NCBI GenBank assembly: GCA_964617765.1
Contig: CAZTZY010000004.1
Location: 15 to 64,014 of the forward strand
Origin: an uncultured Spongiibacteraceae bacterium
GTDB lineage: Bacteria > Pseudomonadota > Gammaproteobacteria > Pseudomonadales > DT-91
Length of the DNA stretch: 64,000 nucleotides
Direction: 5' to 3'
The notes below the pieces were generated by a model. The model did no database searches. It was not told the origin of the DNA and was given only the letters and a program-made list of their open reading frames with translations. Below are positions 2,746 through 31,963 of this stretch, in pieces. Both the position numbers and the translations under genes were made by a program. The stretch's first letter is position 1, and each line of letters starts with the position of its first letter.

Positions 2746-2788
2746 TTGATCAGTGATTACCCATAATGAGTGAGTCGGGTTTCGATGA

Positions 2789-2811
2789 GCGGAATGATTT
2801 ATTCATTCCGC
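2789..2811 (+). terminator. Stem-loop downstream of the adhesin stop codon (possible terminator or attenuator)
   Basis: GCGGAATGA-tttat-TCATTCCGC is a perfect 9-bp stem about 45 nt after the stop at 2745. No U-tract follows, so intrinsic termination is uncertain. Confidence 0.35.
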
Positions 2812-3098
2812 CCTGCCCATGAACATCTCTTCCGGCACCTGGAATTCCAGCCTTAAATTACTCAACTGTCATTGCCCGGTCTCTGGCTAGTTAATAATAT
2901 TTACAAAGCTTCCGGATGTGCCTCACAAAGATATTTTCTGGCGTTTTTGCAACTCTGGGGGAAACTTCATCATTTTGTGTAACAAGTTCATTTTCGAGCC
3001 AATCTATCAATCTTTACGGTGAAATTAGCTAAAATACCTGACTACTGATGTGACACCCTTTATAGTTAGTCTCTAAAAATGATAACAACAATAAATCC

Positions 3099-5816: not shown

Positions 5817-7143
5817 AAATTATTTTATAAGAAAGAGCCACAAGCAATTTTTAATGTCGATGCTGTGTGCACTTTTTTGTTTGATAAATATTGGCGGGCA
5901 GCGTGTTTTTGCGGAAGCTGAAAATACGGTTTTAAACAAACCGGTCATTTCCGAAAACCCATCCGGCCTGGTAGCGGCCTTGCAATCGGTTATAAAGCTG
6001 CATCCAGCTATTAAAAGCCAGCGATCGAAAGTCGATGCGCTGGAATACTCGATCAGTGCCGCTAAATCCGGACGTTATCCCTCCTTGTCAGCACAGGCCA
6101 ATAATGTCAACGAAGAAATGGATCGCGGCACTCTGCAAATAAAACAGCCACTATGGGCATTTGGAAAGATTGATAGTGCTATTGAGGCAGCTAAAGCTAA
6201 CTGGTCTGTAGAAAAATGGATGTTACTGCAGGTGCAGCGGCAGTATATTGAAGAGACTGCAGTAGCCTATGCAAAATTATTGGGTATTCATCAGCAGCAA
6301 GCGGTTGCTGAATTGAATATTATTGAGCATGAAAAGCTTTATCAGCGTATACAGCATCGTCAGCAGGGGCAGCTGGCGTCAGTAGCCGATGTTAATCTCG
6401 CCAATTCCCGTTTGATACAGGCTCAATCGAGGCTGGATAGAATTCGTGGTGAATGGCTCAGTGCCTTGGCCGAGTTACAGGCATTAACACAGGTGTTAGT
6501 CAATGCGGATCAATCCGTTGATGAGGCGCTTATTTCTTTGCCAGCTATGGAAGAAGTGGAGAAGCTTGCTATTGAAAACAGTGCGGATTTGCAAGTGAAG
6601 CGTGAGCAAGCTGTTGCCGTTAGTATTACTGTTAAACAAGAGCGCGTAGCTGCAACGCCCACGGTGTATTTTCAGGTAGATCACGAGGCACTTGACCAGG
6701 TTGATAATCGCTTGAATCGAACCCAGTCAGGTTTGGCCATTGAGGCGTCATTGGGTGGAGCCGGATTTACCACCTTAAACCGGGTAAGGGGTGCCGAGGC
6801 AAAACTGGAAAGCGCACAGTATGATATTGATGCTGCGATTAACGATATTAAACGTCGAGTACAAACCTTGATGCTGGGTTTACAGATACAGAATAACCTT
6901 GGCAAGTCACAAACTGAAACTATTCTTGTGGTCGAAGAAACACTGGCTTCGTTTATGCGGCAATATGATACAGGCCGAAAATCATGGATAGATTTGTTGA
7001 ATACCCAGCGGGAACTGACGGAGTTACGTTATCAACAGGTGCAAATTGACAATGATCGATTGATTCTTTCGTTGCGTGTGGCAGCATTAATTGGCAATCT
7101 GGATAAAATGGCAGGTATCGAGGCCTTCAATGAAGACAAATGA
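5788..7143 (+). CDS. TolC-family outer membrane channel of the T1SS
   Basis: It has a basic N-region and hydrophobic signal peptide (..MSMLCALFCLINIGGQRVFA/EAE). The body is a two-fold repeated long coiled-coil OEP-like sequence. It sits directly upstream of the ABC and MFP genes, and its stop overlaps the ABC start. The start is ambiguous (ATG at 5788, 5800 or 5854). Confidence 0.75.
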   Translation: MLKIMCRKIKNYFIRKSHKQFLMSMLCALFCLINIGGQRVFAEAENTVLNKPVISENPSGLVAALQSVIKLHPAIKSQRSKVDALEYSISAAKSGRYPSLSAQANNVNEEMDRGTLQIKQPLWAFGKIDSAIEAAKANWSVEKWMLLQVQRQYIEETAVAYAKLLGIHQQQAVAELNIIEHEKLYQRIQHRQQGQLASVADVNLANSRLIQAQSRLDRIRGEWLSALAELQALTQVLVNADQSVDEALISLPAMEEVEKLAIENSADLQVKREQAVAVSITVKQERVAATPTVYFQVDHEALDQVDNRLNRTQSGLAIEASLGGAGFTTLNRVRGAEAKLESAQYDIDAAINDIKRRVQTLMLGLQIQNNLGKSQTETILVVEETLASFMRQYDTGRKSWIDLLNTQRELTELRYQQVQIDNDRLILSLRVAALIGNLDKMAGIEAFNEDK

Positions 7144-9385
7144 ACCAATACCCGTAAATGCGGATCATGCACTTCCAGAATCTGCGCAAGAACAATTAGT
7201 GCAAGTGCCGTTACCAGTAAATGTATTGAATAGTTTATTGCAACGCTTGAAGGTATCTGTTGAGGCGGGCGCATTATCAATGGCATGCCTGAAAGCCGAG
7301 AAGGAGTTGCCGGGTTCATCACCAGTCAAACGTATCAATGCTGTTTTTAATAACCTGCAATTACAGGGTATACAAGTTGCCTTGTTGGGTTGGGCGCGTT
7401 TTGATCAGCGCTATTTGCCTGCGATGATATTTTTTAAATCACAATGGTTTTTAATAGAACGTACAGAAAATAATCTTTTTATTCTTGCTGATAATAATGG
7501 CCAGCGTATTGAGGCGGTCAATGAAGATCTGCAAGGTGCGATGGTGCTGTGGTTTCGTAACGTAAAAAAACAGGCCTCGAAAATTCCCTTCTCTACAAAA
7601 GATAACCGGGCCTTTGCGCTGGTATGGCATGAACTCTTCAAACATCCACGCTGGGTGCGGGATATCACCTTGGCAACAGTGCTGGTGAATCTGATTGCCA
7701 TTTCCACTTCCCTGTTTGCGATGCAGGTATATGACCGTGTGGTGCCGACGTTATCCTATGCAACATTATGGACTTTGGTCGCAGGGATGTTTATCGCAGT
7801 GGCCCTGGACTGGATACTCAAAACTGTTAGAAGCCGGGTTCTCGACAGTGTGTCTTGCGAAGCCAATGATGCAATATCACAGCATGTATTTGATCATGTG
7901 ATGCATTTGCAACTGGATACGCGTCCACGTTCACTAGGCACCCTGGCAGCACAGGTAGGCGGCCTTGATTCAGTGCGCCAGTTTTTTTCTTCGGGGGTTA
8001 TTTTTGGCTTGGTTGATATGCCCTTTGCTTTATTGTTTATTGCATTTATCGGCATTATTGGTGGCCATATTGCCTGGGTTTACCTGTTGCTTTTACCTGT
8101 TGCTGCCGTGCTCGGTTTGCTTAACCAGAAATATCTGCGTCGTTTAACGCGGCAGCAAATGATGCGCTCGAATGAACGTCAAGGTTTATTGGTTGATGCT
8201 ATTCAGGGTACGGAATCTATTCGGGCCAGCAATGCCACCTGGCGTTTTTCGGAACAATGGAAAAGCATTACCCATTCTATTGCGGAATATAATATCCAGC
8301 AGAAAGCCATTGGCAGTTTGAGCGCCGTGACAACCTCCAGTATTTCTACCCTCGCCTATGTTGCTGCCATCGTTGTAGGGGTTTACGGTATTGAGGCCGG
8401 TACACTAACGATGGGTGCCATGATTGCTTGTAGCATATTGGGTGGCAGGGTTATTGCTCCGGTAGCACAAAGTATCCAGTATCTTGCACAGTGGCAGAAT
8501 GTATCCGAGGCTTTGATGATGGTTAACCAGGTCTTATCGCTTAATACAGAACGTCGTGAGGATCAAAACCTGTTAATGCCCGATGAAAAGCCGGAGAAGG
8601 TGATATTGGAATCCGTGCAGTTTTCTTATCCCAATTCACCGGTTAAACAGATTGATATTCCCGGCCTGAGTTTCCAGTCGGGTGACAGGGTTTTACTGTT
8701 AGGCCCTATTGGTTCAGGTAAATCGACATTGTTGAAAGTGTTGGCCGGTTTATATCGACCATCGCAAGGACGCATTCGTTTGGGTAATGCAGACTTGTGG
8801 GAGATACATCCACATATTGTTGCCGACCAGGTGGGTTATTTGCCGCAATCAGTGCATTTATTTAAAGGTACATTACGCAGCAATTTATGTTTGTCCGGTG
8901 CGGTGAGTGATTCCCATTTGTTAAAGGTGTGTGAAGATCTGGGCATTGACCGTATAGCGGCCAATAACCCCTTGGGTATGGATCTGGAAATCAGTGAGGG
9001 TGGGGAAGGTTTGTCCGGTGGCCAAAAACAATTGGTTGGGCTAGGTCGTGTATTTTTAGCACAACCCCGAATCTGGTTGCTGGATGAGCCAACAGCTTCG
9101 CTGGATAGCGAAGGTGATGCCAAGGTGTTAGATGCCATTGCAGCCTACATCAAGCCAGAAGATATTCTTGTGGTTTCTACGCATCGTGTGGCATTGGCTT
9201 TAAAAATTGCCAATAGGGTCATTATGATGCAACAAAGCCAGATTGTTGCAGATGGCAAACCTGATGAAGTGATCCCCCAGGCTATGCGCGCAGCCAGTTT
9301 GCCCACAGGGGGTATTTCGGCTGCCAGGCCAAAACCAGGATTATCATTTCCAGTAATGAACAAGGGACCCAATAATGTTATTTGA
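7130..9385 (+). CDS. Type I secretion system permease/ATPase (LssB/HlyB-like) with a degenerate N-terminal C39-like domain
   Basis: ATG at 7130 (MKTNEPIP), because the ORF-track start at 7091 is TTG. TM domain motif: LFAMQVYDRVVP. Walker A: GPIGSGKST. ABC signature: LSGGQKQ. Walker B: IWLLDEPT. The ~160-aa N-terminal domain lacks the C39 catalytic Cys and His context. Confidence 0.85.
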   Translation: MKTNEPIPVNADHALPESAQEQLVQVPLPVNVLNSLLQRLKVSVEAGALSMACLKAEKELPGSSPVKRINAVFNNLQLQGIQVALLGWARFDQRYLPAMIFFKSQWFLIERTENNLFILADNNGQRIEAVNEDLQGAMVLWFRNVKKQASKIPFSTKDNRAFALVWHELFKHPRWVRDITLATVLVNLIAISTSLFAMQVYDRVVPTLSYATLWTLVAGMFIAVALDWILKTVRSRVLDSVSCEANDAISQHVFDHVMHLQLDTRPRSLGTLAAQVGGLDSVRQFFSSGVIFGLVDMPFALLFIAFIGIIGGHIAWVYLLLLPVAAVLGLLNQKYLRRLTRQQMMRSNERQGLLVDAIQGTESIRASNATWRFSEQWKSITHSIAEYNIQQKAIGSLSAVTTSSISTLAYVAAIVVGVYGIEAGTLTMGAMIACSILGGRVIAPVAQSIQYLAQWQNVSEALMMVNQVLSLNTERREDQNLLMPDEKPEKVILESVQFSYPNSPVKQIDIPGLSFQSGDRVLLLGPIGSGKSTLLKVLAGLYRPSQGRIRLGNADLWEIHPHIVADQVGYLPQSVHLFKGTLRSNLCLSGAVSDSHLLKVCEDLGIDRIAANNPLGMDLEISEGGEGLSGGQKQLVGLGRVFLAQPRIWLLDEPTASLDSEGDAKVLDAIAAYIKPEDILVVSTHRVALALKIANRVIMMQQSQIVADGKPDEVIPQAMRAASLPTGGISAARPKPGLSFPVMNKGPNNVI

Positions 9386-10589
9386 TCTATTGTTTACCGA
9401 TGATGATACAAGAAGGCAGCAAGCCATTGCCAGGCTGGAAAATTTCCATCGGCGTCCCTATTCAGTATTGTTGTTCATTATTGCAGGCGCATTAATGGCA
9501 TTTGCCTTGTGGGCCTGGTTTTTCAAGATTGATCAGGTGGCTCGAGCAAAAGGTGAGGTTATTGCCAGTAGCAGGGTTCAAATTATCCAGGCTGTTGATG
9601 GCGGGGTGCTGGCTGCCTTGAATGTAAAGGAGGGCGATACTGTTGAAAGAGGGCAGGTGTTAGCGCAGCTTGATCAAATCAAATTGGGTGCTTCCGTAAA
9701 AGAAATTGAGGCGCGCCTGTCTTCATTAAAGGTTAAGGCTATTCGACTAAGGGCTGAAGTGATTGGCGTGAATGAGCTGCAATTTCCATCAGAACTGAAT
9801 CAATATCCCGATTTGGTTCAGGTTGAACAGGCTTTGTTTCAACAGCGTCGACTGGGATTGAAAGAAGAAATTCGTACGATTGAAAATTCCATTAAACTTG
9901 CACAGGAAGAAACAGATTTAGTGCGGCAGTTAGTGAAATCGGGGGATGCCAATCGATCTGAAGTCATTCGTGCAGAAAATGCCCTGAATGAGGCTAATTC
10001 CAAATTGATTATCCGCAAGAACCGTTTTTTTGAAGAAGCCAGTTCAGAGTTGACCAAAGTGGAAGACGGCATTGCCCAAAATGAACAAGTGTTGGCACAG
10101 AGGCAGCAACAACTCGAAGACAGTACTTTCAGGGCGGTAGTGCCCGGTATTGTTAAAAACATCCGGGTGACTACCGTGGGCGGTGTGTTGCGTGCCGGTG
10201 AAGAGTTAATGCAAATTATCCCTATTGATGATCAGCTGATTATTGAGACAAAAGTGAGTCCGGTAGATATTGCCCAGATACGGCCAGGCTTGGCAGCCAT
10301 GATTCGTTTTGATCCTTTTGATTACACAATTTTTGGAGCGGTGGAAGGCAAGGTTGTATATGTGAGTGCTGATACACTAAAGGAAGATACGCCCAAAGGT
10401 GAAGAAATTTATTACCGCGTTCATGTGTCCAGCAATTCACTTCCTGTGACTACTACGACAGGAAAGGAAATCGATATTTTGCCGGGTATGACCGCGCAGG
10501 TTGATATTCGCACAGGAAGTCGAAGCGTATTGGATTACTTATTAAAGCCATTGCGTAAAACGGTGACTGAATCGTTTGGTGAAAGATAG
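9375..10589 (+). CDS. HlyD-family T1SS membrane fusion protein
   Basis: It has a single N-terminal TM segment (VLLFIIAGALMAFALWAWFF), a lipoyl-like segment (GEVIASSRVQIIQAVDGGVL), a long coiled-coil hairpin and a C-terminal beta-barrel (ILPGMTAQVDIRTG). It overlaps the ABC gene by 11 nt. Confidence 0.85.
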   Translation: MLFDLLFTDDDTRRQQAIARLENFHRRPYSVLLFIIAGALMAFALWAWFFKIDQVARAKGEVIASSRVQIIQAVDGGVLAALNVKEGDTVERGQVLAQLDQIKLGASVKEIEARLSSLKVKAIRLRAEVIGVNELQFPSELNQYPDLVQVEQALFQQRRLGLKEEIRTIENSIKLAQEETDLVRQLVKSGDANRSEVIRAENALNEANSKLIIRKNRFFEEASSELTKVEDGIAQNEQVLAQRQQQLEDSTFRAVVPGIVKNIRVTTVGGVLRAGEELMQIIPIDDQLIIETKVSPVDIAQIRPGLAAMIRFDPFDYTIFGAVEGKVVYVSADTLKEDTPKGEEIYYRVHVSSNSLPVTTTTGKEIDILPGMTAQVDIRTGSRSVLDYLLKPLRKTVTESFGER

Positions 10590-10718: not shown

Positions 10719-11858
10719 TTATTCAGTGCTGAAGTTAAATTGCATTTGTCGAAGCTTGTCCAGTGCATAAGTGCTTAATACCGCGTTTTTATTTTCCGAA
10801 ATAATCCAGATGTCTTTTTCACTGTTGCTCAGGTTGTAAATGAACTTCTGCAGGGTTGCATGGGCTTTTTCTTCGGTGCTGGATTGTTGTTTGTAGTTAT
10901 TATGTCTTTGCAGCAAATATTTTTGGAAGGCCTGTTTTAATTCAGCAATCGACTTACTGCCAATTTTCTTCTCTATCAATTCCTCTACATAAGCTGTGGA
11001 AGCTATAGTGTCAAGAATCAGTTGCTCGCCTTTGTCAGTGAGTAATAGTTTTTTTGCGCGTTTATCAGAAGGGTCATCGACCCTGGCAATATAGTCAGCT
11101 TTTTCAATTTCGTTAGCCAGTTGGCTGATTGCCTGTTTTGATATGCCATTCAGTTCGGCAAGATCATTAATGCGCACACCTTGCTGGGTAATTTTTTCGA
11201 GGACTTGCCAGTAAGAGCGTTTTAACGGTGCATGACCTTTTTGGGCATTTTTTTCCTGCATTAATAAATCCAGTTGTGTCGCTATTGAGGTGACATAGGC
11301 AATCAGGGGTAATTCACTGGAGATTTCCGGAGTATACGCCCCGGCATCAGGATATTTTAATGACAGGCTTTTAAATAACGCATGTGAATGAGTTTTTAGT
11401 GCATAAAAAGCTGTTTCACCCATGTTTGATTTGAGTCTGGCATCTGTATCGCTGGTAAAGCTGGCGGCCTGGCGAATCAGATGAATACCTTGCGTTGTCA
11501 GGATCAGTTTTTTCGAGCGCTTGTCAGTCTGGTCATCTGCGCGGGTAATGTACCCAAGGCTTTCCAGTTCATTGGCAATTTGCCCAATAGCTTGTTTGCT
11601 GACCCCTTGGGATTTGGCAATATCGACGATGCGTGTGCCTGTGCTGGAAATTTGCGGCAAAATCAGTGCATGGGAAAGTTTGAGCCCTTTATGACCAGCG
11701 GCCAGAGCCTTATCCATCAAATCCTTGTAAATGTCATCTGCCAACAATGAGTAATACAAGCAAAGATTGTCGGAGAGGTTATTAAGTTTGTGGCTAAGTT
11801 TTTCGGTCGTCATGATCTTCACATCGTTATTGTGAGTAGAGTGTAGCATAAAGGACAA
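10719..11858 (-). CDS. Tandem (duplicated) MarR-family transcriptional regulator
   Basis: One chain carries two winged-HTH units. Unit 1: TRIVDIAKSQGVSKQAIGQIANELESLGYITRADDQTDKRSKKLILTTQG. Unit 2: VRINDLAELNGISKQAISQLANEIEKADYIARVDDPSDKRAKKLLLTDKG. The ORF-track start is TTG; ATG candidates are at 11849 and 11813. Confidence 0.75.
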   Translation of the reverse strand: MSFMLHSTHNNDVKIMTTEKLSHKLNNLSDNLCLYYSLLADDIYKDLMDKALAAGHKGLKLSHALILPQISSTGTRIVDIAKSQGVSKQAIGQIANELESLGYITRADDQTDKRSKKLILTTQGIHLIRQAASFTSDTDARLKSNMGETAFYALKTHSHALFKSLSLKYPDAGAYTPEISSELPLIAYVTSIATQLDLLMQEKNAQKGHAPLKRSYWQVLEKITQQGVRINDLAELNGISKQAISQLANEIEKADYIARVDDPSDKRAKKLLLTDKGEQLILDTIASTAYVEELIEKKIGSKSIAELKQAFQKYLLQRHNNYKQQSSTEEKAHATLQKFIYNLSNSEKDIWIISENKNAVLSTYALDKLRQMQFNFSTE

Positions 11859-12858
11859 TCGATATTGACTATATAGACAGGTATAATTTACTGTTTATTT
11901 TCCCGCAATATTTTGTTGAATGACTCCTTTTCAGGTATTTGTCATGAAAATAGTTAGATTTGATCTGATCTGTATTTCCATAAAGTTATTGAACCCCCTT
12001 ATCCTGGAAACTCGAATCGTATATTTGGGTATTGGTCAACGATTTGCTTGAGTAGTATTTGATCGAATTACAGGACTAATATCCTGCCTGATTTGTGGTG
12101 TACCTGCCGATGGTAGTTATTTTACGTCTGATTATAATTCCTTGAAATGGTGAGTATTGGTTGTGAAAATTAATCAATTTGCTGTTATCGTGCAATAAAA
12201 ACGAGTTTAAAGTTCTGCCTGCAGCTGCAGGCAAGTATTGATGTTGTGTCGACTTTGCAAACAGGCGGCAAAACCTGATTGGATTGCTGGGTATGGAAAA
12301 GCAGTTCGCATTGATGGTTCTGCCAGGTTATTGCTCGGAACTGCGAGGGTATATATTGAATTATATGGGAAAATCCTGATGTGTATGATGACCCTCGTAA
12401 AACCATGGGGCACTGCGGTTTTGGTATTCATGCCTGCGTGGATTCTGAAGAAATTCTAAAATGGTTGCCATAGTATGCATTGACGAATCAGCTTTGTAGT
12501 GTATGCATTCTCCCAATGTTCGTGGGTTTATTCATATCCCGTTGCCCTGCAGGTTTTAAACCAGTCTTTTCTGTTAAATGTTCAAATTTTGCACTGTTTT
12601 TGAGCGTCCCATGCTCCGGTCTTCTATTACCAACTATTATATTTGTGTTTGTGTCTAGCTCATGTAGAATCAGGAACTTATCGTAGAAAAGTAAAACAAT
12701 TTTAATAATAAATAATAACGTAAAAAATGCGCTCACTGCCCATCAAAATTTCCTGATGTTTGTGCTCCTGAAACTCAATACGCAGTTTACGTTTGGTTTT
12801 ACTTGTAAAAAACGAATCAAAATCGGATTAATCCATAAACATAATGGATGGATGAAGA

Positions 12859-13386
12859 ATGAAGAATCTTAGAAATCTGGGTGCTTATTGCGGGCAGGTA
12901 ATTTTTTTTCTGTTCATTTCATATGCTGCAATCGCTGCAGACCTTAATCAGGAAAAAACGCAATTAAAAGTTGATGTAGATGCCTTGGGAAGAGATATTG
13001 CTGCTGTTGAAAAGGATATTTTATTGCCCTCTGCCTCTCGTGTTGAGGTTTTTTTATCATTGGCTCCCAATGTTGAATATACGCTCAAGTCAGTCACTTT
13101 GCTTCTTGATGGCAATGAAGTAGCCAGTCATACCTATTCCGGGGCGGATATCAAATCATTGTTGTTTGGTGCCCTGCATACAGTTTGGCAGGGTAATGTC
13201 GACTCAGGTTCGCATGTATTGCAGGCAAAATTTTCAGGCATTGATCGTAAGGATAAACCCGTACAAAACACGGCAACACTAGACTTTGAAAAATCAGCCA
13301 ATCATCGTTCTCTGGAGTTGAAAATTACTTTTACTGAAGAGGATAAGATTGTGGTGTATTCGGTAAAGGATTGGGGTGATAAATAA
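12859..13386 (+). CDS. Secreted protein of unknown function (signal peptide, short coiled coil, beta-rich domain); first gene of the TPR/ExbBD/TonB-like operon
   Basis: The N-terminal hydrophobic signal is VIFFLFISYAAIAADL. There are only 2 nt between its stop and the next start. I recognise no family motif. Confidence 0.55.
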   Translation: MKNLRNLGAYCGQVIFFLFISYAAIAADLNQEKTQLKVDVDALGRDIAAVEKDILLPSASRVEVFLSLAPNVEYTLKSVTLLLDGNEVASHTYSGADIKSLLFGALHTVWQGNVDSGSHVLQAKFSGIDRKDKPVQNTATLDFEKSANHRSLELKITFTEEDKIVVYSVKDWGDK

Positions 13387-13388
13387 AA

Positions 13389-14852
13389 ATGAAATCATCA
13401 ACTAGATTTATTGCTATTGCCGCAGCATTGTTTTCCTGCTGCGTACAGGCAAAAACCAATTTTTGGGCGGTGGATGCAGCTTCGCCTGTTGCTGAAGATA
13501 TTCCGTATCGTGCGGCACATTTTTTTCAGCGCTCGCACGAGTATGAAAAAGCTTTGGCAGTATTGTCGACAGCCAATCGAGCTTCTGCATCGGCGGTGGT
13601 AAATGCCCATAGGGATATGCTGGCAGGATATTTGAACATATTGCTCAAGCGTTATGAGGATGCCGAGCGTTCTTTGGCGGGCTTGGGTGACCCACAAATA
13701 TTTTCTGATTATAACGCCCAGGTTTTGTATCCATTGGCGCGTGCTTATTATGGTCAATCGCGTTGTGATAAGGCATTAGGCACGATTGCCAGGGCGCAGG
13801 GATTTCATCCTGAAATAAATGCCCGTGTGATGCATATTCGGGTTGCCTGTATGTTGCAGCAAAGTTCCGATGCCAGTGTGATTAGCCAGGCTGAAAGTGT
13901 TATCAATGATGCATTAATGACAAAAAGCGATGTTGATAAAATGTGGTTTGCCTATGCGTATTATAATCTGGCTAGTGCGGCTGCAGGGCAATTCCAGAAT
14001 TACATGGATGCAGATCGATTTTTTAATGAAGCCCTGAAGTATGCCGATAATTCATCGGAAGGATTAGCATTAAAAGAGCGTACATTGCTGAATCTGGGTT
14101 TTGCTAATTATGCGGATAACCGTTTTGACTATGCGGCGAAGGCGTTTGCCGAGTTGCCAGTAGATGGAATATGGGCTGATGTGGCGCTCTTGGCTTATGG
14201 GTGGGCGTCTTTAAATAGCTATAAGCCCGATATGGCTATTGAGTCATGGCGGCAATTGGTCAATCTGCCCTATAAATCTGCTGCGGTTTATGATGGTTAT
14301 ATGGCAATTCCGCAGGCTTATGAAAAGGCAACATCCTATTCCGAAGCATTAGCTGCATATGATGAGGCTATTGTTGAATTCTCGAAGCTGGCGAATGATA
14401 TTGATGGATTACTGAAAACATTGTCACGTCAAAAAATCCATGAGTATGCGATCCAGTACTCTCAGGATAACAAAGAAACCGCAAAAAACTTGCCGGCATT
14501 ATTGGCTCGTACTTATACAGAAGATAATTTGCGGGGCAAGGTTGAGTTTATTAATGACATCGAGTCGTATAAAAAACGTTTGACGGAGTATGAAAAAGTA
14601 TTGCAACAATTACAGGCTAAAGGCGGGGCGGAGGCGGTTAAATTAAAAGTCTTGCAAAATAATATTGTTTCATTAAGGCAGCGGAGCGAGAAAGTGCTAG
14701 TGATTGAAGAGACTCAATTATTGGAGCAGACCCTGGTTATGCTGAATCAGCAAAAGAAGAAGATCATGCAATATACACTCGATGCACGGATTACCAATGC
14801 GCGTTTGCAAGAGGAGTTTTTTCAGCGTGGGGGTCGTAGATTATGGCGATAA
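13389..14852 (+). CDS. Secreted or lipoprotein TPR-like helical-repeat protein with a C-terminal coiled coil
   Basis: The signal/lipobox-like N-terminus is IAIAAALFSCC. It has repeated TPR-like helices (YEKALAVL, YEDAERSL, CDKALGTI, FDYAAKAF, YSEALAAYDEAI) and a coiled-coil tail (KKRLTEYEKVLQQLQAK). Its stop overlaps the next start (TAATG). Confidence 0.6.
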   Translation: MKSSTRFIAIAAALFSCCVQAKTNFWAVDAASPVAEDIPYRAAHFFQRSHEYEKALAVLSTANRASASAVVNAHRDMLAGYLNILLKRYEDAERSLAGLGDPQIFSDYNAQVLYPLARAYYGQSRCDKALGTIARAQGFHPEINARVMHIRVACMLQQSSDASVISQAESVINDALMTKSDVDKMWFAYAYYNLASAAAGQFQNYMDADRFFNEALKYADNSSEGLALKERTLLNLGFANYADNRFDYAAKAFAELPVDGIWADVALLAYGWASLNSYKPDMAIESWRQLVNLPYKSAAVYDGYMAIPQAYEKATSYSEALAAYDEAIVEFSKLANDIDGLLKTLSRQKIHEYAIQYSQDNKETAKNLPALLARTYTEDNLRGKVEFINDIESYKKRLTEYEKVLQQLQAKGGAEAVKLKVLQNNIVSLRQRSEKVLVIEETQLLEQTLVMLNQQKKKIMQYTLDARITNARLQEEFFQRGGRRLWR

Positions 14853-17680
14853 TGCAACGATTAGGCCTATTGTTTGTCATTTTGAGTTTAGGGGCTTGTG
14901 TATCCAATACGGCTAAAAGGGAAACAGTAGATTCCCAAGAGCCCTTTTTGTTACGAGAGTTAATTCCTTTTTATGTTTCCAATACTACCGATGTAGTAAA
15001 GGTAGGAACAGACAAGTTAATTGCTAATTATCGTGATCTCTTGACGCGTATTAATGATCCGAAGCTGATAGCAGCAATTACTGCTCGTGTAGCTGACCTT
15101 GAATTGCTCTTGCAAGATCAGTTGGTAGCGCAAGCTGAAGATGCTGATAAGGTTTACATCGCAGATTATAGTAAGGCTATCAAAGCCTATATTGAAATAT
15201 TAACGAGATTCCCCAAACTTGAAAATAATGATCAAACCTATTACCAGTTAGCCAAGGCTTACGATATGGGAGCGCAAGGCGATAACTCCCTTAATGCATT
15301 AACCCAGTTGGTGACCAAATATCCTGAATCTATCTATTTTGTGGAGGCGCAATTCAGGCGAGGTGATTATCTGTTCTCCAAGGGTCGGTATAAGGACGCC
15401 CAGGTTGCTTATCAGGCTGCCATTGATAAAGGTAAAGAAACTCCATTCTATGAGAATGCTTTATATATGAACGGCTGGACCGCTTTCAAGCGTACTTCTT
15501 ATGATCTGGCTTTGTTGAATTTTACCGGGGTTCTTGATCGCAGCTTGCCAGAAAATGGCCACATGGAAGGGGTGGATACTACCAAGTTGCCACTGGTGGA
15601 AGATAGTTTACGTATCATGGGCATAGTTTTCGCTTATATGGATGGCGGTAAATCGATTGCTGAAACCTATGACAATCTTGGGCGTCGTGGTTATGAAGGT
15701 TTGTTATATGAGCAATTGGGTGATTTGCTGGTTGAGCAAGAGCGTTATAAAGATGCTATTGATACCTATAAAGATTACATTGCCATAAATCCTTCCAGTC
15801 AATATGCGCCCGCATTGCATAATAAAGTATTAAAAACCATGCAGCTGGCGAAATTTTTTAATAAATCCTTTATTGAAAAAGAAAGTTTTATCAATACTTA
15901 TGATAGCGCCGGTGATTACTACGCCCAGGCTGATGAACTTACACAAGCCTATATCAATCCGTTTTTGTATACCTATATCGATGAGGTTGCTCGGTTTTAT
16001 CATTCGCGCGCCAAGAAGGCGAAAGCTGCAACTGTTGATAAACAGGGTAACATGCAAAAAGATTATGCTACCGCTATCAGCTTTTATGAGAAGTTTGTCA
16101 GTAATTTCCCTGAAGATGCCAATGCCCCTGAAAAAGTTTTTATGATGGGTGAGATTTATGCAGATATTGGGGATTATGAAAAAGCTGTTAAGGCTTATGA
16201 GCAAGCGGCTTATGATTTCCCTATCAATTTTTATTCTGAAGATGCCGTTTATGCATCTATTCTTGCCTACACTCAATTGCTTTTGGAAGAAAAAGATCCT
16301 GAAAAACATAAAGTGCTGGTTGAGCGTAAACTGGCAGCGCAGGTGGCTTTAACCGAGAAGTATGCGTTTAGTAAATACAGTCGTCCGGTTATGCTGGATG
16401 CCATTGATACCCTTTATACCGAGAAAGATTATACGCGTGTTGTGGAGCAATCCGAGCGTTTTCTGGTATTGGAGCCAGCACCTACAAAAGATGAAGAAGC
16501 GAATGTATCTATTGTGTTAGGTCATAGCCAGTTTGAATTGAAGAATTTCCCTGCATCGGAAGCAGCTTATGAAAGGGCACTTGCGATTCTGGAACCTAGT
16601 GATCCAAGAGCTATAGACATTGTCGACAGAATTGCAGGTGCTGTTTATCGTAAAGCGGAAGGTTTATATGCCGAAGGCAATAAAGAGGGCGCGATTGATG
16701 AGTTTTTGCGCGTAGCCCAAGTGGCGCCCACTTCACAATTCAGGAAAAATGCCGAATATGATGCGGCAACCTATTTGTTAGAGATTAAAGATTGGAAGCG
16801 TGCGCTGGATGTTTTGAGTGGCTATCGAACCAGATTTGATCAGGATGCCAGTAGCCTTGATGTCTCTGCAAAATTCCTGATGGCTTATGAGGGATTGGAG
16901 CGTTTCGATTTGGCTGCATCAGAGCTAACACGTGTTTCAGCGCTTTCCGAGGATCCTGAGAAAAAACGCCAGGCTTTGTTTTTATCAGCTGAATATTATG
17001 AAAAAGCGGGTCAGGAAAACCGTTCTCTGGCAATGTATAAAGAATACCTTGATGCCTATCCCCAGCCTTTTGATCTGGCTATGGAAACGCGTTATAAGTT
17101 GAGCGAGGCTTATAAAAAGCAGAAAGATATCCAGACGTATCGTTATTGGCTGGAAGAGATGATTGCCTTCGATACTTCGGCGGGTGCAGAAAGAACGGAT
17201 AGGTCAAAATATCTGGCAGCTTCAGCGAAAAATGTTTTTGCTGAAGATTTTCGTGTGGCTTTTGAGTCGATCAAGTTAACTTTGCCATTGAATGAATCCT
17301 TGCCTAACAAAAAAGAAGCACTGGAAGTGGCATTAAGCAAATATCAGGAAATTATTGATTACGGTGTTCAGGAATTTACCACGCAGGCGACGTTTTATCT
17401 GGGTGGTATATATGCGACGCTGAGTAAGGATTTGATTGATTCTGATCGCCCGGCGGGTTTTGATGAACTCGCGCTGGAGCAATATACCATCCTGTTAGAA
17501 GAAGAGGCTCTGCCTTTTGAAGATAAAGCGATTGAAATCCATGAGGCCAATGTGCTGAATAGTAAAGCGGGATTTTACGATAAGTGGGTGTCAAAAAGTA
17601 TTGATGCTTTAGCCAAGTTACAGCCAGGTCGTTATAACAAGAAAGAAGAACAAGGGGGGTATAGTAATGCGATTTACTAA
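14843..17680 (+). CDS. Large TPR lipoprotein (~940 aa), positionally and architecturally GltD/AgmU-like
   Basis: The lipobox is VILSLGAC. TPR-type repeats run through the whole protein (YYQLAKAY, EAQFRRGDYLFSKGRYKDAQVAYQ, YENALYMNGW, MGEIYADIGDYEKAVKAYEQ...). An alternative ATG at 14852 overlaps the upstream stop. The GltD assignment rests on architecture and gene order only. Confidence 0.6.
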   Translation: MAIMQRLGLLFVILSLGACVSNTAKRETVDSQEPFLLRELIPFYVSNTTDVVKVGTDKLIANYRDLLTRINDPKLIAAITARVADLELLLQDQLVAQAEDADKVYIADYSKAIKAYIEILTRFPKLENNDQTYYQLAKAYDMGAQGDNSLNALTQLVTKYPESIYFVEAQFRRGDYLFSKGRYKDAQVAYQAAIDKGKETPFYENALYMNGWTAFKRTSYDLALLNFTGVLDRSLPENGHMEGVDTTKLPLVEDSLRIMGIVFAYMDGGKSIAETYDNLGRRGYEGLLYEQLGDLLVEQERYKDAIDTYKDYIAINPSSQYAPALHNKVLKTMQLAKFFNKSFIEKESFINTYDSAGDYYAQADELTQAYINPFLYTYIDEVARFYHSRAKKAKAATVDKQGNMQKDYATAISFYEKFVSNFPEDANAPEKVFMMGEIYADIGDYEKAVKAYEQAAYDFPINFYSEDAVYASILAYTQLLLEEKDPEKHKVLVERKLAAQVALTEKYAFSKYSRPVMLDAIDTLYTEKDYTRVVEQSERFLVLEPAPTKDEEANVSIVLGHSQFELKNFPASEAAYERALAILEPSDPRAIDIVDRIAGAVYRKAEGLYAEGNKEGAIDEFLRVAQVAPTSQFRKNAEYDAATYLLEIKDWKRALDVLSGYRTRFDQDASSLDVSAKFLMAYEGLERFDLAASELTRVSALSEDPEKKRQALFLSAEYYEKAGQENRSLAMYKEYLDAYPQPFDLAMETRYKLSEAYKKQKDIQTYRYWLEEMIAFDTSAGAERTDRSKYLAASAKNVFAEDFRVAFESIKLTLPLNESLPNKKEALEVALSKYQEIIDYGVQEFTTQATFYLGGIYATLSKDLIDSDRPAGFDELALEQYTILLEEEALPFEDKAIEIHEANVLNSKAGFYDKWVSKSIDALAKLQPGRYNKKEEQGGYSNAIY

Positions 17681-18404
17681 TCCTGGAAAAATATCTGCGT
17701 TATTATTTATAACGGTATTTTTTCTCGTATCTTGTGGGGGTGCCGATAAAAAAGAAGAAGAGCCCGTTGCATTAACGACGGAGCAAATACGTATTATGGA
17801 ATTGGTCAAGTTTGGGCCTGACCCCTATTTGGCTACGGCGCCTGTGTTCAAGAAGGAAGATAAAGAGGCAAAAGCAAAATTTGATGCATTGAAGGCTGAA
17901 TTTGAATCAGCAACCAAGTTATTGGCGAGTGACGAGGCTGCCGCAGAAGTTAAGTTAAAAGCTCTAATGGAAAAATACCCAACCTATTCTGGCCCTGTCT
18001 ATAATTTGGCGGTATTGGAAAAGAATCGCGGTAATGTAAAAGCTGAGAAGGACTATCTGGACGAAGCTATAAAGCGAAACCCAATGAATTTTAGTGCGCG
18101 AAATTTGCGGGCTTTAATCTATCGTGATGATGGCAAGTTTGCAGATGCTGAAAAAGAATATCTCGAAATTATCAAATTATGGGGAGGCTATCTAACAGCC
18201 TATAAAAATATTGGTATCTTGTATGATTTGTATATGGGCAGATCCAGTGACGCGTTACCCTATTATAAAAAATACAATTTCCTGATTCCGACGCCAGATA
18301 AACAGGTTACGGGCTGGATTGTTGATATCGAAAGACGCGTTGGTACACAGCCAGTTCCTCAGGTTCAGGAATCAGCTCCAACTACTGATTCGGGAGGGCA
18401 ATAG
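17667..18404 (+). CDS. Small TPR lipoprotein (245 aa), positionally GltE/AglT-like
   Basis: The lipobox is FFLVSCGG. TPR repeats include PVYNLAVLEKNRGNVKAEKDYLDEAIKRNP and ARNLRALIYRDDGKFADAEKEYLE. An AAGGGGGG RBS lies upstream. It overlaps the previous gene by 14 nt. Confidence 0.6.
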   Translation: MRFTNPGKISALLFITVFFLVSCGGADKKEEEPVALTTEQIRIMELVKFGPDPYLATAPVFKKEDKEAKAKFDALKAEFESATKLLASDEAAAEVKLKALMEKYPTYSGPVYNLAVLEKNRGNVKAEKDYLDEAIKRNPMNFSARNLRALIYRDDGKFADAEKEYLEIIKLWGGYLTAYKNIGILYDLYMGRSSDALPYYKKYNFLIPTPDKQVTGWIVDIERRVGTQPVPQVQESAPTTDSGGQ

Positions 18405-18405
18405 C

Positions 18406-18678
18406 ATGCGAATATTTTTATTTTTGTTAGTTCTGGGTTTTAGTTTTCGTTCGTTTGCGCAAGAGATAATTACTATTCAATCAACAATAACCGGTAGCCA
18501 GGAACAACCTAAGGTGATCAGTATTGTTCCATGGCAGAAGCCTGAAGACCCTGATTATTTTGGTCAGGAAACTTCAGTGTTGGGTTTGACCCCGAATGTT
18601 TTCAAATCATTGGACAGGGATGGTTTCTCCAAAGAGCTTGAATACATATCAGTGATGAGAAAAAGTGCACAGAAATAG
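18406..18678 (+). CDS. Small secreted protein (90 aa), in the position GltF occupies in Agl-Glt core clusters
   Basis: The internal ATG at 18406 is preceded by GGGAGGG and lies 1 nt after the upstream stop. The signal peptide is MRIFLFLLVLGFSFRSFA/QE. The upstream part of the ORF-track ORF (18319-18405) overlaps the previous gene and is probably not translated. Confidence 0.5.
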   Translation: MRIFLFLLVLGFSFRSFAQEIITIQSTITGSQEQPKVISIVPWQKPEDPDYFGQETSVLGLTPNVFKSLDRDGFSKELEYISVMRKSAQK

Positions 18679-18859
18679 CTGTTTTATTACAATATAGACA
18701 TGAATAAGGTATTTTAATTGGTACTAAAATGTCTAGAATAGAAGCTAATTATTTGGCATTAAAAATTATAATAAAAAAACCGGGTTCAGCTTAAAAAGAA
18801 ATCATTCGATCAAAAGTACACCATTAACAATTAACACTCAAAACCAGTAGGTAAAAGTT

Positions 18860-19477
18860 ATGAATGCAATAATAAAATTTATGCAAGACGGTGGTTTTTT
18901 TATGATTCCAATCGCCTTATGTATGGGAACCGGAGTCGTAATCGCCATAGAGCGATTTATATTCCTGACCATGCAAAAGATATCAAACAGGAAGGCGTTT
19001 GATGAAATGCTACCCATCATTAAAAAAGGGGATATTGATGCATTGGTTAAATATACCAAAGCGTCAAAGGCTCCTGTTTCAAGCATCATTGGAGCGGGTG
19101 CAGCCCGTCTTAAAGAAACTCAGGATCGTGATGATATTTCCTACGCAATGGAAGAGTGTGTGATGGAAGCTACTCCGCGTTTGGAAAGACGTACCGGTTA
19201 TCTCCCCATGTTGGCAAACATTTCAACTTTGTTAGGTCTTCTGGGTACTGTTATGGGTCTTATAGATGCGTTCTCTGCAGTTGCCCATGCTGAAGCCGCT
19301 GAAAAATCAGCATTATTAACAGCCAGTATCGCGGTCGGTATGAACACCACGGCATTTGGATTGTTAGGTGCTATTCCTTTGGTTCTTGCCTATGCCTTGT
19401 TGCAAACAAGAACAACCGAAATTGTTGATAGTTTAGAGATGGCCGGTGTGAAGTTTTTAAACATGATCGTGCGCTAA
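18860..19477 (+). CDS. MotA/TolQ/ExbB-family proton channel
   Basis: Three TM segments. Family motifs: GGFFMIPIALCMGTGVVIAIERF, LANISTLLGLLGTVMGLIDAF and GMNTTAFGLLGAIPLVLAY. An AGGTAA RBS lies upstream. Confidence 0.85.
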   Translation: MNAIIKFMQDGGFFMIPIALCMGTGVVIAIERFIFLTMQKISNRKAFDEMLPIIKKGDIDALVKYTKASKAPVSSIIGAGAARLKETQDRDDISYAMEECVMEATPRLERRTGYLPMLANISTLLGLLGTVMGLIDAFSAVAHAEAAEKSALLTASIAVGMNTTAFGLLGAIPLVLAYALLQTRTTEIVDSLEMAGVKFLNMIVR

Positions 19478-19506
19478 ATTTATTGGCTGATTTTGAGTAT
19501 TAATAT

Positions 19507-20037
19507 ATGTCTAGAAGAAAAAAACATAAAGTTGAAGATCTAGAACTTAGTGCTTTCATGAATATCCTGATTGTTTTGGTTCCGATACTTTTAACCAATA
19601 TGACTATCAGTGCAACGACGATTCTTGATCTAAAGCTGCCGCCGGGTGGTGCTGGCGGTGGAGGCGCATCTGAAAATCAGCAAATCGAATTAATTATCCA
19701 TAAGGATTATATGACCCTGAATTACCCTGCAGGAGTTTATATGGATGAGTTTCCCAAGAAGAATGATGAGTATGATTTGAAAGCTTTGGCAGCGAAATTA
19801 CAGGTATTAAAACCTGCGATAGAGGAGAGCATTGGTAAGCCAAAGCGTGACATATTAATTTTAGCAGAGGAAAAAACCGATTATCAGGCACTGGTATCGA
19901 CAATGGATGCTGTTAGATCATTTGAGGTGGATGAGGGAGAAAAGTTGGTTGAATATGAATTATTTCCGGATATTTCTTTAGGTGATTCACCAGTATTGGC
20001 AGGTTCTGATGCTCAGGAATCTGGAGTTGCACCATGA
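19507..20037 (+). CDS. ExbD/TolR-family protein, paralogue 1 (with poly-Gly insertion)
   Basis: N-terminal TM segment: LSAFMNILIVLVPILL. ExbD-like periplasmic domain: ILILAEEKTDYQALVSTMDAVR. It carries an unusual PPGGAGGGGAS insert just after the TM segment. Confidence 0.75.
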   Translation: MSRRKKHKVEDLELSAFMNILIVLVPILLTNMTISATTILDLKLPPGGAGGGGASENQQIELIIHKDYMTLNYPAGVYMDEFPKKNDEYDLKALAAKLQVLKPAIEESIGKPKRDILILAEEKTDYQALVSTMDAVRSFEVDEGEKLVEYELFPDISLGDSPVLAGSDAQESGVAP

Positions 20038-20537
20038 AGCAATCAATGCGTGCAAAAAGAATGCAGCGTAAGCATTCCCGTCATGGTGACGATGGTACTC
20101 TTAGTTTAACAGCATTAATGGATGTATTTACCGTTCTGGTGTTTATGATGCTGATTAACTCTCAAGATGGTGTGCAGTTAAACGATACTAAAGAAATGAG
20201 AATGCCTGTATCCAGTGCACTTGAACTCCCCAAAGAAAATTTACTCGTGATGATTGTCAAAAACGATATTCTTGTGCAGGGTAATAAAGTGGGTGAAGTT
20301 TCAGCAATCAATGATAAGAAAGAGATTGATTTAACCGCTTTCAGTGAGGAATTGAAGTATCAGGCTGATAGGCATCCTGATTTAACCGATGAAGAGAAAG
20401 AGTTGGGGCGACCTATTACGATTCAGGCTGATCGCAAGCTGCCTTATTCTGTGTTGAAGCAAATTATGTCTGCTGCTGCCATGGCTGAGTATCGCAATAT
20501 TTCTTTGGCTGTAACGCATAAGTCGAAGGAGGGTTGA
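20034..20537 (+). CDS. ExbD/TolR-family protein, paralogue 2
   Basis: TM segment: LSLTALMDVFTVLVFMMLIN. Periplasmic domain: ITIQADRKLPYSVLKQIMSAAAMAEY. A 4-nt ATGA overlap joins it to the previous gene. Confidence 0.8.
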   Translation: MKQSMRAKRMQRKHSRHGDDGTLSLTALMDVFTVLVFMMLINSQDGVQLNDTKEMRMPVSSALELPKENLLVMIVKNDILVQGNKVGEVSAINDKKEIDLTAFSEELKYQADRHPDLTDEEKELGRPITIQADRKLPYSVLKQIMSAAAMAEYRNISLAVTHKSKEG

Positions 20538-20539
20538 AT

Positions 20540-21607
20540 ATGCAGAATACTTCATCATATTCAAGTCTCGATACTTTATTGCCCTGGTCATCTTCAGCTA
20601 AGGAAGATAAACGCTTTAATATATTGGTTATTATATTTCTTCTCTTTTTATTATTTGCCAGCTTTTGGGTGAAGAGTGTTCAGTTGCCTAAGGTTGATCG
20701 AAAAGAGTTGGAGGCACTTCCGCCATCAATTGCGAAAATCATCATCAAGAAAAAGGAAGAGTTGAAACGTAAACCCGTTGAAATCAAGAAAGTTACTGAA
20801 GAAGTAGCACAAAAGACTGAGGAAGCCCCAAAGGTTGAAGAAGTTAAGCAGGTGGAAGTAGAAAAGCCTGCTGAAGTTAAACAGGCCATTAAACCTGTTA
20901 TGACGGCTGAACAAGTTCGTGAGATTAAGGTTTCAGAGGCTAAAGCAGTTGCCAATAAAGAAATATCAAAGATAAAAGATGATTTGGCGTCAATGCGAAA
21001 TATGTTTGCACCCAAGAGTATAGCGCCCGGTGGTGGAGGTAATGGAGGAATTAAAGTTTCAACAGCTTTGGGTAACTCTGGCGCTGGTGTTTCCCGTTCG
21101 CAAATAGTTGGCGCAGGAACGGGTGGTAGTGGCGGTATTTCAGTTTCTTCAGGTGCATCTTCGGGATTGGGTGGTGGTTCAGGTGGTGGCTCAGGTACCG
21201 GTATTGGTAGTGGCAGCGGTCGCGGAGATACCAATGTTGATAGCGTAACCTTGGGCGGAGCAATTGTTGATACTGGCGGTGATGTTGCGGATGCTATAAA
21301 AAGTGCCGGATCTGCTGGTAATCGCAGTGAAGAGTCTATTCGTTCTACATTGGATGCGAATAAATCTGCATTGTATGCAATATACAACAGGGCATTACGT
21401 GAAGATCCATCTTTACAAGGCAAGGTGGTTTTCAAATTGGTGATTGAGCCGGATGGTTCTGTATCTTCTTGTTCGATAGTCAGTACGGAGCTTAATGATC
21501 CGGCATTGGGTAATAAACTGATAAGCCGTATGAAGTTTATTAATTTCGGTCCCGATGATGTGACCCAAACAACGACTCAATGGGCTATCGATTTTTTGCC
21601 TAATTAG
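20540..21607 (+). CDS. TonB-like / AgmX(GltG)-like energy-transducer protein
   Basis: ATG at 20540 lies 7 nt after GGAGGG, because the ORF-track start at 20534 is TTG. It has a single TM segment (FNILVIIFLLFLLFASFWV), a K/E/P/V-rich spacer, a Gly/Ser-rich low-complexity spacer and a C-terminal TonB_C/AgmX-like fold (ALYAIYNRALREDPSLQGKVVFKLVIEPDGSVSSCSIV...). Confidence 0.7.
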   Translation: MQNTSSYSSLDTLLPWSSSAKEDKRFNILVIIFLLFLLFASFWVKSVQLPKVDRKELEALPPSIAKIIIKKKEELKRKPVEIKKVTEEVAQKTEEAPKVEEVKQVEVEKPAEVKQAIKPVMTAEQVREIKVSEAKAVANKEISKIKDDLASMRNMFAPKSIAPGGGGNGGIKVSTALGNSGAGVSRSQIVGAGTGGSGGISVSSGASSGLGGGSGGGSGTGIGSGSGRGDTNVDSVTLGGAIVDTGGDVADAIKSAGSAGNRSEESIRSTLDANKSALYAIYNRALREDPSLQGKVVFKLVIEPDGSVSSCSIVSTELNDPALGNKLISRMKFINFGPDDVTQTTTQWAIDFLPN

Positions 21608-21618
21608 CGGTTTTTTTT

Positions 21619-21646
21619 AAATGCCATTCAATCCTGAATGGCATTT
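21619..21646 (+). terminator. Stem-loop at the operon end (putative terminator)
   Basis: AAATGCCATTCA-atcc-TGAATGGCATTT is a perfect 12-bp stem 12 nt after the stop, preceded by a T8 run. The trailing U-tract is weak. Confidence 0.5.
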
Positions 21647-21961
21647 AACCTCTTGTTTTACATGTTGAATTAAATAATTGATAGGGTCAAAAACTATAGG
21701 CATATTGGATCTGCGGATTTAACGATTATTCATTGCTTGGATGTTATTTTTTCATAGAGTAATTAGGCTGTAAGTTTTTAGGGTCAATTAATGCCTTTTA
21801 GGCAATGTTGTATATTTAATTTTTAAGTTTTTGAAAATTCATCTGGGTTTTGCCATGTGTTTTTGTGATAATGACTGGTCTTGCTAAGCCTGATTTGGAA
21901 TAAGGTTCGTTAAAGCATTTTGGTTTTGAATAATAATAAGTTTGTGTAGAGGAACATCTTC

Positions 21962-30444: not shown

Positions 30445-30458
30445 ATAGTTTGTACGAT

Positions 30459-30486
30459 ATTGAGCAACAAAAAGTTGTTGCTCAAT
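30459..30486. terminator. Hairpin between the convergent nitroreductase gene and nuoN (bidirectional terminator candidate)
   Basis: ATTGAGCAACAA-aaag-TTGTTGCTCAAT is a perfect 12-bp stem in the 53-nt gap between the two convergent genes. Confidence 0.65.
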
Positions 30487-30497
30487 AAAACTGCAAT

Positions 30498-31958: not shown

Positions 31959-31963
31959 GGCGC

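Follow-up and report, generated by a model that had tools for sequence, protein, structure and literature searches.

The locus described here raises the question of what kind of envelope machine is encoded by nine adjoining genes (g1 to g9) in a 64,000-nt stretch of contig CAZTZY010000004.1 from an uncultured Spongiibacteraceae bacterium; this whole stretch is referred to below as the window. An earlier reading of the sequence alone (the sequence-only reading) had proposed that the genes correspond to the core of the Myxococcus Agl-Glt gliding machinery, and that they form neither a Tol-Pal system nor a TonB system for nutrient uptake. The comparisons reported here indicate that the locus is very probably an ordinary copy of the Agl-Glt-type 'core complex' that stands on its own and would drive outer-membrane work dependent on the proton-motive force (PMF). 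Systems of this kind have been on record since 2011, and the locus is a new, fairly divergent copy; it adds no new kind of system in itself, and its added value lies in the comparative findings. The function of the core has been an open question since 2011, and an answer would explain the origin of the Myxococcus gliding and spore-coat machines. The definition of the unit as nine genes, the Asn/Asp composition of its putative axle and its linkage to DUF3570 and ApbE genes in relatives together make that function more testable.

Match to the published Agl-Glt core

The core (Group B) was defined by Luciano et al. 2011 (PLoS Genet 7:e1002268) as gltC, gltD, gltE and gltG together with aglR, aglQ and aglS, which form one cluster in several Gammaproteobacteria, one betaproteobacterium, Geobacter and Fibrobacter. 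It was described as the non-motile ancestor of the Myxococcus gliding machine, with an unknown function, and has been cited elsewhere as a 'basal transport machinery' of unknown function (PMC3858216). In Shewanella frigidimarina, Table S3 of the 2011 study lists Sfri_1223 as GltG (332 aa), Sfri_1224 as AglS (177 aa), Sfri_1225 as AglQ (188 aa), Sfri_1226 as AglR (217 aa), Sfri_1228 as GltE (263 aa), Sfri_1229 as GltD (1016 aa) and Sfri_1230 as GltC (692 aa), while Sfri_1227 is not listed. Equivalent patterns are given for Cellvibrio (CJA_3312-3315), Saccharophagus (Sde_2954-2959/3565-3567) and Marinobacter (Maqu_1813-1814), and the GltD homologues in the same table span 952-1016 aa. The order and sizes of g2-g9 equal those of Sfri_1230-1223, that is, GltC-GltD-GltE-[extra small gene]-AglR-AglQ-AglS-GltG. 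The position and size of g2 match the GltC homologues Sfri_1230, Sde_3567 and Maqu_1814, and by position g3 corresponds to GltD, g4 to GltE, g7 to AglQ and g8 to AglS.

The published sizes and order, together with the score of g9 against the AgmX/PglI model (see below), bear out the proposal that the operon matches the Agl-Glt core in composition and order. The sequence-only reading had limited the match to genes 3 to 9; g2, which it left outside, sits at the GltC position. Two of its gene assignments need correction. GltF had been counted as a core member, but belongs to Group A and occurs only in Myxococcales and Bdellovibrionales, and g5, which had been placed at its position, is the 'additional gene' of the core complex. 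GltG had been equated with AgmX, but it is the former PglI, whereas AgmX is GltJ.

A survey of gene neighbourhoods, which the sequence-only reading had proposed, showed that the nine-gene order recurs in about 80 species. The scan covered one genome per species, with an alignment of the channel protein as the query; more than 573 species contained a relative, the best 80 loci were kept, and profiles for g1-g9 were built from five loci. The genes g1-g9 were collinear and co-directional in essentially every locus that was long enough (about 80 species), including loci from Cellvibrionaceae, Spongiibacteraceae, Alteromonadaceae, Marinobacter, Oleiphilaceae, Woeseiaceae, Acidiferrobacterales and Kangiellaceae, and the betaproteobacterium Caldimonas has the same nine-gene arrangement. 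Judged by the best matches, the closest relatives of the host are Spongiibacteraceae and Cellvibrionales. Collinearity was recorded for g3 in 79 loci and for g4 in 78, and g1 stands directly 5' of g2 in 68. The presence of the same nine genes in the same order in about 80 species indicates that the arrangement is not due to chance, and their collinearity that the conserved unit comprises nine genes, rather than seven or eight, with g1 and g5 encoding uncharacterised secreted proteins that belong to no Pfam family. The other neighbours of the operon in the window recur in no loci outside the closest relatives.

The locus thus resembles the core of Luciano et al. in gene order, protein sizes, organization as a single co-directional cluster, the presence of TPR (tetratricopeptide repeat) lipoproteins, a channel protein with two TolR-like paralogues, and a TonB-like GltG without the myxobacterial additions. 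It differs from the published description in the presence of g1 at its 5' end, outside the published gene list, and in a g2 that falls about 115 profile positions short of its length in most members.

The Agl-Glt and Agl-Nfs machines of Myxococcus xanthus would share with the locus a PMF-driven stator of the AglR5:AglQ:AglS type with a GltG TonB-like transducer, a periplasmic TPR scaffold of GltD, GltE and GltC, and a C-terminal domain of the AgmX/PglI type. On the other hand, the locus is devoid of the GltA/B/H/K outer-membrane complex, the CglB adhesin and the GltI/GltJ/AglZ/MglA platform, and neither barrel genes nor GltI-like or GltJ-like genes were found in the window flanks or in related loci. 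The Agl-Glt genes are moreover spread over three clusters, whereas here all genes lie in one operon. The evolutionary relation to Agl-Glt/Nfs, and the presence upstream in the window of a type I secretion system (T1SS; TolC/LssB/HlyD) with a Big-domain protein, would fit a mover of surface cargo, comparable to Agl-Glt in gliding or Agl-Nfs in the transport of spore-coat polymer, and perhaps serving the neighbouring T1SS adhesin. This explanation is nevertheless very improbable. The Group A genes, including those for the barrels GltA/B/H and for GltK, GltI and GltJ, are absent, and g9 has no FHA domain, the part through which GltG connects with the MglA/AglZ/MreB platform, and only a 27-aa cytoplasmic N-terminus. 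In addition, the T1SS neighbourhood was not seen in other loci, and in the window a divergent MarR gene and a P450 pseudogene separate it from the operon. Lacking a cytoplasmic FHA domain as well as every Group A gene, the core presumably has an output other than motility.

Putative proton channel, transducer and periplasmic scaffold

The g6 protein matches Pfam MotA_ExbB (90.7 bits) and has three transmembrane segments, and g7 and g8 match Pfam ExbD (45.6 and 56.3 bits) with one hydrophobic segment each, in agreement with the sequence-only reading of a MotA/TolQ/ExbB channel followed by two ExbD/TolR paralogues. The identity of g6 to its cluster orthologues is 47-70%, the betaproteobacterium included, compared with 29% to another ExbB of the window (60917) and about 34%, over half its length, to ExbB/TolQ of Escherichia coli. 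Both channel-lining Thr residues (ExbB T148/T181) are kept in 85/85 orthologues, and the site of ExbB E176 / TolQ E173 is occupied by Val in the window and by Val or Ile in 84 of the 85. At the site of the essential transmembrane Asp (TolR D23 / ExbD D25), g7 carries Asn (83 of 85 orthologues, the other 2 having Ser), whereas g8 keeps the Asp in all 80 aligned orthologues; in BLAST comparisons either paralogue is barely detected with the other. The predicted heterodimeric axle with a single protonatable Asp offers a concrete handle on the system. In an AlphaFold study of the Myxococcus proteins, only AglR5:AglQ:AglS-GltG gave a robust model (PMC11761067), which agrees with such a heterodimer. 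According to a review, however, AglQ and AglS of Myxococcus both carry the transmembrane Asp (PMC9389320); in that case, the core and the gliding motor differ at this site of g7/AglQ.

A second ExbB/ExbD pair, with products of 207 and 138 aa and the Asp in place, occupies 60917-61960; comEC (58413-60785) stands on one side of it and the gene for an MsbA-like ABC transporter (61953-63803) on the other. As this ordinary pair is separate from the operon, g1-g9 do not encode the only ExbBD-type motor of the cell.

The g9 protein consists of the short cytoplasmic N-terminus, one transmembrane segment, an E/K/P-rich spacer, a G/S-rich spacer and a C-terminal domain. The latter scores 60.7 bits against the AgmX/PglI C-terminal domain model (NCBIfam NF033768; cut-off 40), more than against TonB or TolA models. 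The best whole-protein family is GltG, with residues 28-338 aligned to model positions 337-628/650, an alignment that starts at position 337 and so excludes the N-terminal FHA half of GltG. Both the AgmX/PglI and the GltG models were matched by 62 of 62 g9 relatives, more than match TonB models, and the closest homologue is 70% identical. The single-pass topology, the low-complexity spacers and the AgmX/PglI-type C-terminus recognized in the sequence-only reading were thus upheld, but the Pfam TonB_C assignment was not, the match being sub-threshold (17.7 bits against a gathering score of 24.6). An AlphaFold2 (AF2) model of the C-terminal domain (mean predicted local distance difference test score, pLDDT, 85.6) gave 24 top Foldseek matches that were all C-terminal domains of TonB, HasB, FusB or TolA, with a TM-score to the target of about 0.6 and a root-mean-square deviation of 2.1-2.5 A over about 70 residues. 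The domain is accordingly modelled as a TonB-type C-terminal fold of the myxobacterial AgmX/PglI type.

These features have a bearing on two alternatives. In the first, the locus would be a paralogue of the Tol-Pal kind, with a role in tethering or remodelling the outer membrane for envelope integrity or division and with TPR lipoproteins akin to CpoB/YbgF or BamD. The best score of g6 among the equivalog models is indeed that for TolQ (66.4 bits), g3 scores 82.3 bits, via its repeats only, against a YbgF/CpoB-type TPR model (cut-off 90.1) and matches a BamD-type TPR model of NCBIfam, and the g9 domain model also matches TolA domain III. The architecture as a whole resembles TolQ5R2-TolA, in its proton channel of the 5:2-type family, in its single-pass transducer, where a long spacer precedes a C-terminal fold like that of TolA and TonB, and in its TPR partners, which resemble CpoB repeats. 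The scores for TolQ and TolR (18 bits for the latter) are, however, far below their cut-offs of 221 and 127, although the window's ordinary ExbB/ExbD pair also falls below the same equivalog cut-offs. No TolB, Pal or YbgC gene occurs in the locus or in about 80 related loci, and the cluster is patchily distributed, in contrast to the near-universal Tol-Pal. Unlike Tol-Pal, the locus moreover encodes two different TolR paralogues, one with the Asp, a channel protein without the equivalent of TolQ E173, and four extra periplasmic or lipoprotein subunits. The Tol-Pal-like explanation therefore appears improbable, and the stronger affinity of the g9 C-terminal domain for AgmX/PglI also speaks against it.

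The second alternative is a TonB-ExbB-ExbD system of the TonB2/TonB3 kind that energises TonB-dependent receptors for nutrient uptake. The Pfam ExbB and ExbD domains, the E/K/P-rich spacer and the TonB-like fold of the g9 C-terminal domain are shared with TonB-ExbB-ExbD systems, including Vibrio TonB2/TtpC, and some databases label g9 relatives as 'TonB family protein'. The flanks of the cluster in the window, however, contain no TonB-dependent receptor, TolB or Pal gene, and no receptor, siderophore or haem gene adjoins the cluster here or in related loci. A scan for Fur boxes upstream of the operon gave a best match of 12/19, with nothing above background. The absence of receptor, siderophore, Fur-box and Pal/TolB context noted in the sequence-only reading was thereby confirmed. 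The ExbB score of g6 (51.8 bits, cut-off 206) and the ExbD score of the ExbD-like proteins (17.5 bits, cut-off 216) are also far below cut-off, no TtpC-like gene is present, and in the ExbD pair, predicted to be heteromeric, the first member lacks the essential Asp. The invariant partners of the motor, the large TPR lipoprotein among them, are instead four periplasmic or lipoprotein genes that are absent from uptake systems. A role in nutrient uptake is therefore extremely improbable, and the proposal that the operon is neither Tol-Pal nor a TonB uptake system holds on both counts.

Signal peptides were read from the translations of g1, g2 and g5. The g1 protein is composed of a signal peptide, a short helix, in which its relatives carry an LNRDL..LEE..LLFP motif, and an Ig-like beta-sandwich; it has no Pfam or NCBIfam match. 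A search with g1 as a single sequence gave 4 proteins, whereas with an alignment as the query the family comprised more than 6296 clusters at 90% identity, unnamed or misnamed as 'AraC family'. The AF2 model of g1 has a pLDDT of 84 (above 90 in the sandwich), and Foldseek with this model returned generic Ig-like matches (TM-score about 0.3) that gave no functional clue. It is a conserved ninth gene outside the published seven-gene core list.

The g2 protein is a secreted helical/coiled-coil protein, possibly lipidated (LFSCC). It covers profile positions 1-511/626, the C-terminal ~115 positions of its ~650-aa orthologues being missing, and it has no Pfam or NCBIfam match and no relative in the PDB. 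Since no TPR profile matches g2 in the window, and its orthologues gave faint TPR matches only, the 'TPR-like' label of the sequence-only reading was not confirmed for this copy. By contrast, g3 (~942 aa, lipobox LGAC, multiple TPR Pfam families) and g4 (lipobox LVSC, TPR Pfam matches) are TPR lipoproteins, as had been read from the sequence. The top NCBIfam match of g4 is GltE, at 29.8 bits against a cut-off of 225. A plasmid search with g3 matched nothing, and PDB sequence searches with g2, g3, g6, g9 and one DUF3570 protein returned only designed TPRs, CpoB and ExbB/TolQ.

The g5 protein carries a near-invariant motif, TIxGNQEQPxVLYIVPWQxP (78 sequences), and has no Pfam or NCBIfam match. 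It corresponds to the locus tags skipped between GltE and AglR in Table S3 of Luciano et al., and is an additional gene of the core complex without a recognisable myxobacterial homologue. With GltF it shares the position after gltE, the size (89 vs 90 aa) and a signal peptide, and it is a positional and size analogue of GltF only. The motif was also sought, as a possible shared 'TonB-box', in DUF3570 and other flanking proteins, and proved to be restricted to g5.

Taken together with work on related machines, these features suggest a mechanism. The g6 protein, with its family membership, three transmembrane segments and both Thr residues, would form a pentameric proton channel of the TolQ/ExbB/AglR type, the 5:2 stoichiometry being proposed by analogy with the solved ExbB5D2 and TolQ5R2 complexes and the AglR5QS model. 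The axle or plug may be a heterodimer of g7 and g8, with g8 as its one protonatable member, consistent with the conserved Asn and Asp. Proton flow would be converted into conformational or rotary work and passed to g9, bound via its transmembrane helix, whose disordered spacers are expected to cross the periplasm and pass the work to the TonB-like C-terminal domain. There, g9 may dock on an outer-membrane-anchored TPR scaffold of g3, g4 and g2, as suggested by the Myxococcus AlphaFold model, in which the linker of GltG winds around GltD, GltE is likewise attached to GltD, GltC makes the link to the outer-membrane barrels and the C-terminal domain of GltG gains a strand from GltF (PMC11761067). 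The products of g5, with its beta-strand motif, and g1, with its Ig-like sandwich, are putative periplasmic accessory subunits, and g5 may contribute a strand to the C-terminal domain of g9, much as GltF does for GltG. The output would be PMF-dependent work on the outer membrane or on an outer-membrane partner; in most relatives the best candidate target is a co-transcribed DUF3570 outer-membrane flavoprotein module, which is unlinked in the window.

Several points weigh against the assignment to the Agl-Glt-type core and the mechanism derived from it. The assignment is built on synteny, protein sizes, the GltG and AgmX profiles and the published tree, and the labels GltD, GltE and GltC on position, size, lipoprotein or TPR nature and the published phylogeny, while the stoichiometry, the protein contacts and the output are all proposed by analogy. 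The match of g4 to GltE reflects generic TPR similarity, as an unrelated TPR protein of the window (3099-5816) scores higher (38.5 bits), and g2 is shorter than its orthologues and has no detectable TPR. As AglQ is reported to carry an Asp where g7 has Asn, the stator may also work differently from that of Myxococcus. Finally, neither a functional study nor an experimental phenotype of any gammaproteobacterial copy was found in the literature searched.

Linkage to a flavinylation module in relatives

Upstream sequence was in view for 66 species loci; in 52 of them, genes for ApbE and/or a TlpA-like thioredoxin (Trx), DUF4266 and DUF3570 come immediately before g1 in the same orientation, about 0.7-3.5 kb upstream of g1 (loci L003, L004, L008, L010, L013, L016-L019, L021, L023, L029, L033, L036, L037, L042, L049, L057, L061, L064, L066, L071, L075 and others). 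The module occurs in at least four orders (Trx-DUF4266-DUF3570-g1; DUF3570-ApbE-g1; DUF4266-DUF3570-ApbE-Trx-g1; ApbE-Trx-g1), and DUF3570 and g1 are often separated by 0-40 nt, or overlap. The DUF3570 proteins of relatives have an SGAS flavinylation motif and an aromatic C-terminus resembling that of outer-membrane proteins, and nothing is conserved downstream of g9 in related loci. The flavinylation of DUF3570 by ApbE has been shown experimentally by Meheust et al. 2021, who mention no TonB/ExbB-type neighbour for the DUF3570 system (PMC8238504); a link between the core and ApbE/DUF3570 was not found in the papers searched. The linkage, which holds in most lineages, nominates a candidate outer-membrane partner of the core.

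These observations would fit an alternative in which the core is not free-standing but forms the PMF-driven, energising and anchoring half of an extracytoplasmic redox system, a 12-13-gene envelope unit with DUF3570, DUF4266 and the TlpA-like Trx, where the motor and the TonB-like g9 would act on the ApbE-flavinylated outer-membrane barrel DUF3570. The lineage of the window would then have uncoupled, relocated or lost the partner. If this were true, the precursor of the gliding motor would originally have served to energise, or to gate, a redox protein of the outer membrane, and this class of motors would have a second peculiarity, a mechanistic one, in its conserved Asn/Asp heterodimeric axle. 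We regard this alternative as tentative and rather unlikely. Unlike most other core members, the window copy and its nearest relatives have no ApbE/DUF3570 module upstream: the module was not found at 11859-12858 of the window, nor next to the operon in the related loci L002 and L007, and the sole ApbE of the window belongs to the nqr operon. A conserved flavinylation motif ([ST]GA[ST]) was sought in g1-g9 and none was found. In the Cellvibrionaceae loci ApbE is the only component seen, after gspLMN, which, together with the missing motif, suggests that part of the signal may be inherited synteny. A stand-alone core complex remains the preferred description of the locus in the window.

Operon layout and surroundings in the window

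Open reading frame (ORF) maps and translations place g1-g9 on the plus strand as nine tightly packed ORFs spanning 12859-21607 (Table 1). The recomputed coordinates and spacings agree with the nine co-directional, closely spaced genes of the sequence-only reading, except that the gap between g5 and g6, which it had given as 180 nt, is 181 nt.

Table 1. Genes of the operon and the hairpin that follows it (window coordinates).
Feature	Position	Strand	Size and remarks
g1	12859-13386	+	175 aa
g2	13389-14852	+	487 aa
g3	14843 (or ATG 14852)-17680	+	945/942 aa
g4	17667-18404	+	245 aa
g5	18406-18678	+	90 aa; start is the ATG inside a TTG ORF beginning at 18319
g6	18860-19477	+	205 aa
g7	19507-20037	+	176 aa
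g8	20034-20537	+	167 aa
g9	20534 (TTG) or 20540 (ATG)-21607	+	357/355 aa
Terminator-like hairpin	21617-21648	+	14-bp stem, 10 nt past the g9 stop codon

The remaining junctions are a 2-nt gap (g1-g2), a TAATG overlap when g3 begins at its second Met (g2-g3), a 14-nt overlap (g3-g4), a 1-nt gap from the g5 ATG (g4-g5), a 29-nt gap (g6-g7), an ATGA overlap (g7-g8) and a 2-nt gap from the g9 ATG (g8-g9). The g9 gene probably starts at this ATG, which is also the start of its database protein P0001. The hairpin likely marks the end of the operon. The g5-g6 gap (18679-18859) is AT-rich, with a promoter-like site at 18666-18693, and the motor genes may have an internal promoter of their own; since the gap ranges from 29 to 405 nt across relatives, such a promoter would not be conserved. 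Antisense ORFs within the operon (e.g. 20680-21435 and 15830-16309) were set aside as artefacts that mirror sequence of low complexity or skewed composition, and an Rfam scan of the window gave zero matches.

Upstream of the operon, the T1SS cluster (22-10589) encodes a TolC-like protein, an LssB-type ABC transporter and an HlyD adaptor; it also holds a 905-aa TPR protein and a Big-domain repeat protein cut by the start of the window, and its ORFs at 7091-9385 and 5788-7143 overlap by about 50 nt. A minus-strand gene (10719-11858) encodes a 379-aa protein with two tandem MarR-type domains; it is divergent from the operon, its position is kept in the closest relative (L002), and it may be a local regulator. 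It is followed, within ~1 kb before g1, by frameshifted cytochrome P450 fragments (11900-12860), which are a pseudogene remnant, the P450 gene being intact in L002 (905-2068). Downstream of the operon lie genes for a BNR/Ycf48-like protein, an MMPL/HAE3 transporter of the resistance-nodulation-division family and a DUF1329 protein. Farther on, a complete nuo (NDH-1) operon occupies the minus strand at 30446-45783, with NuoN, NuoG and a fused NuoCD confirmed; it lies within a segment of ~15 kb that L002 lacks between the flanking genes, and is followed by the nqr operon with its own ApbE (47368-54293).

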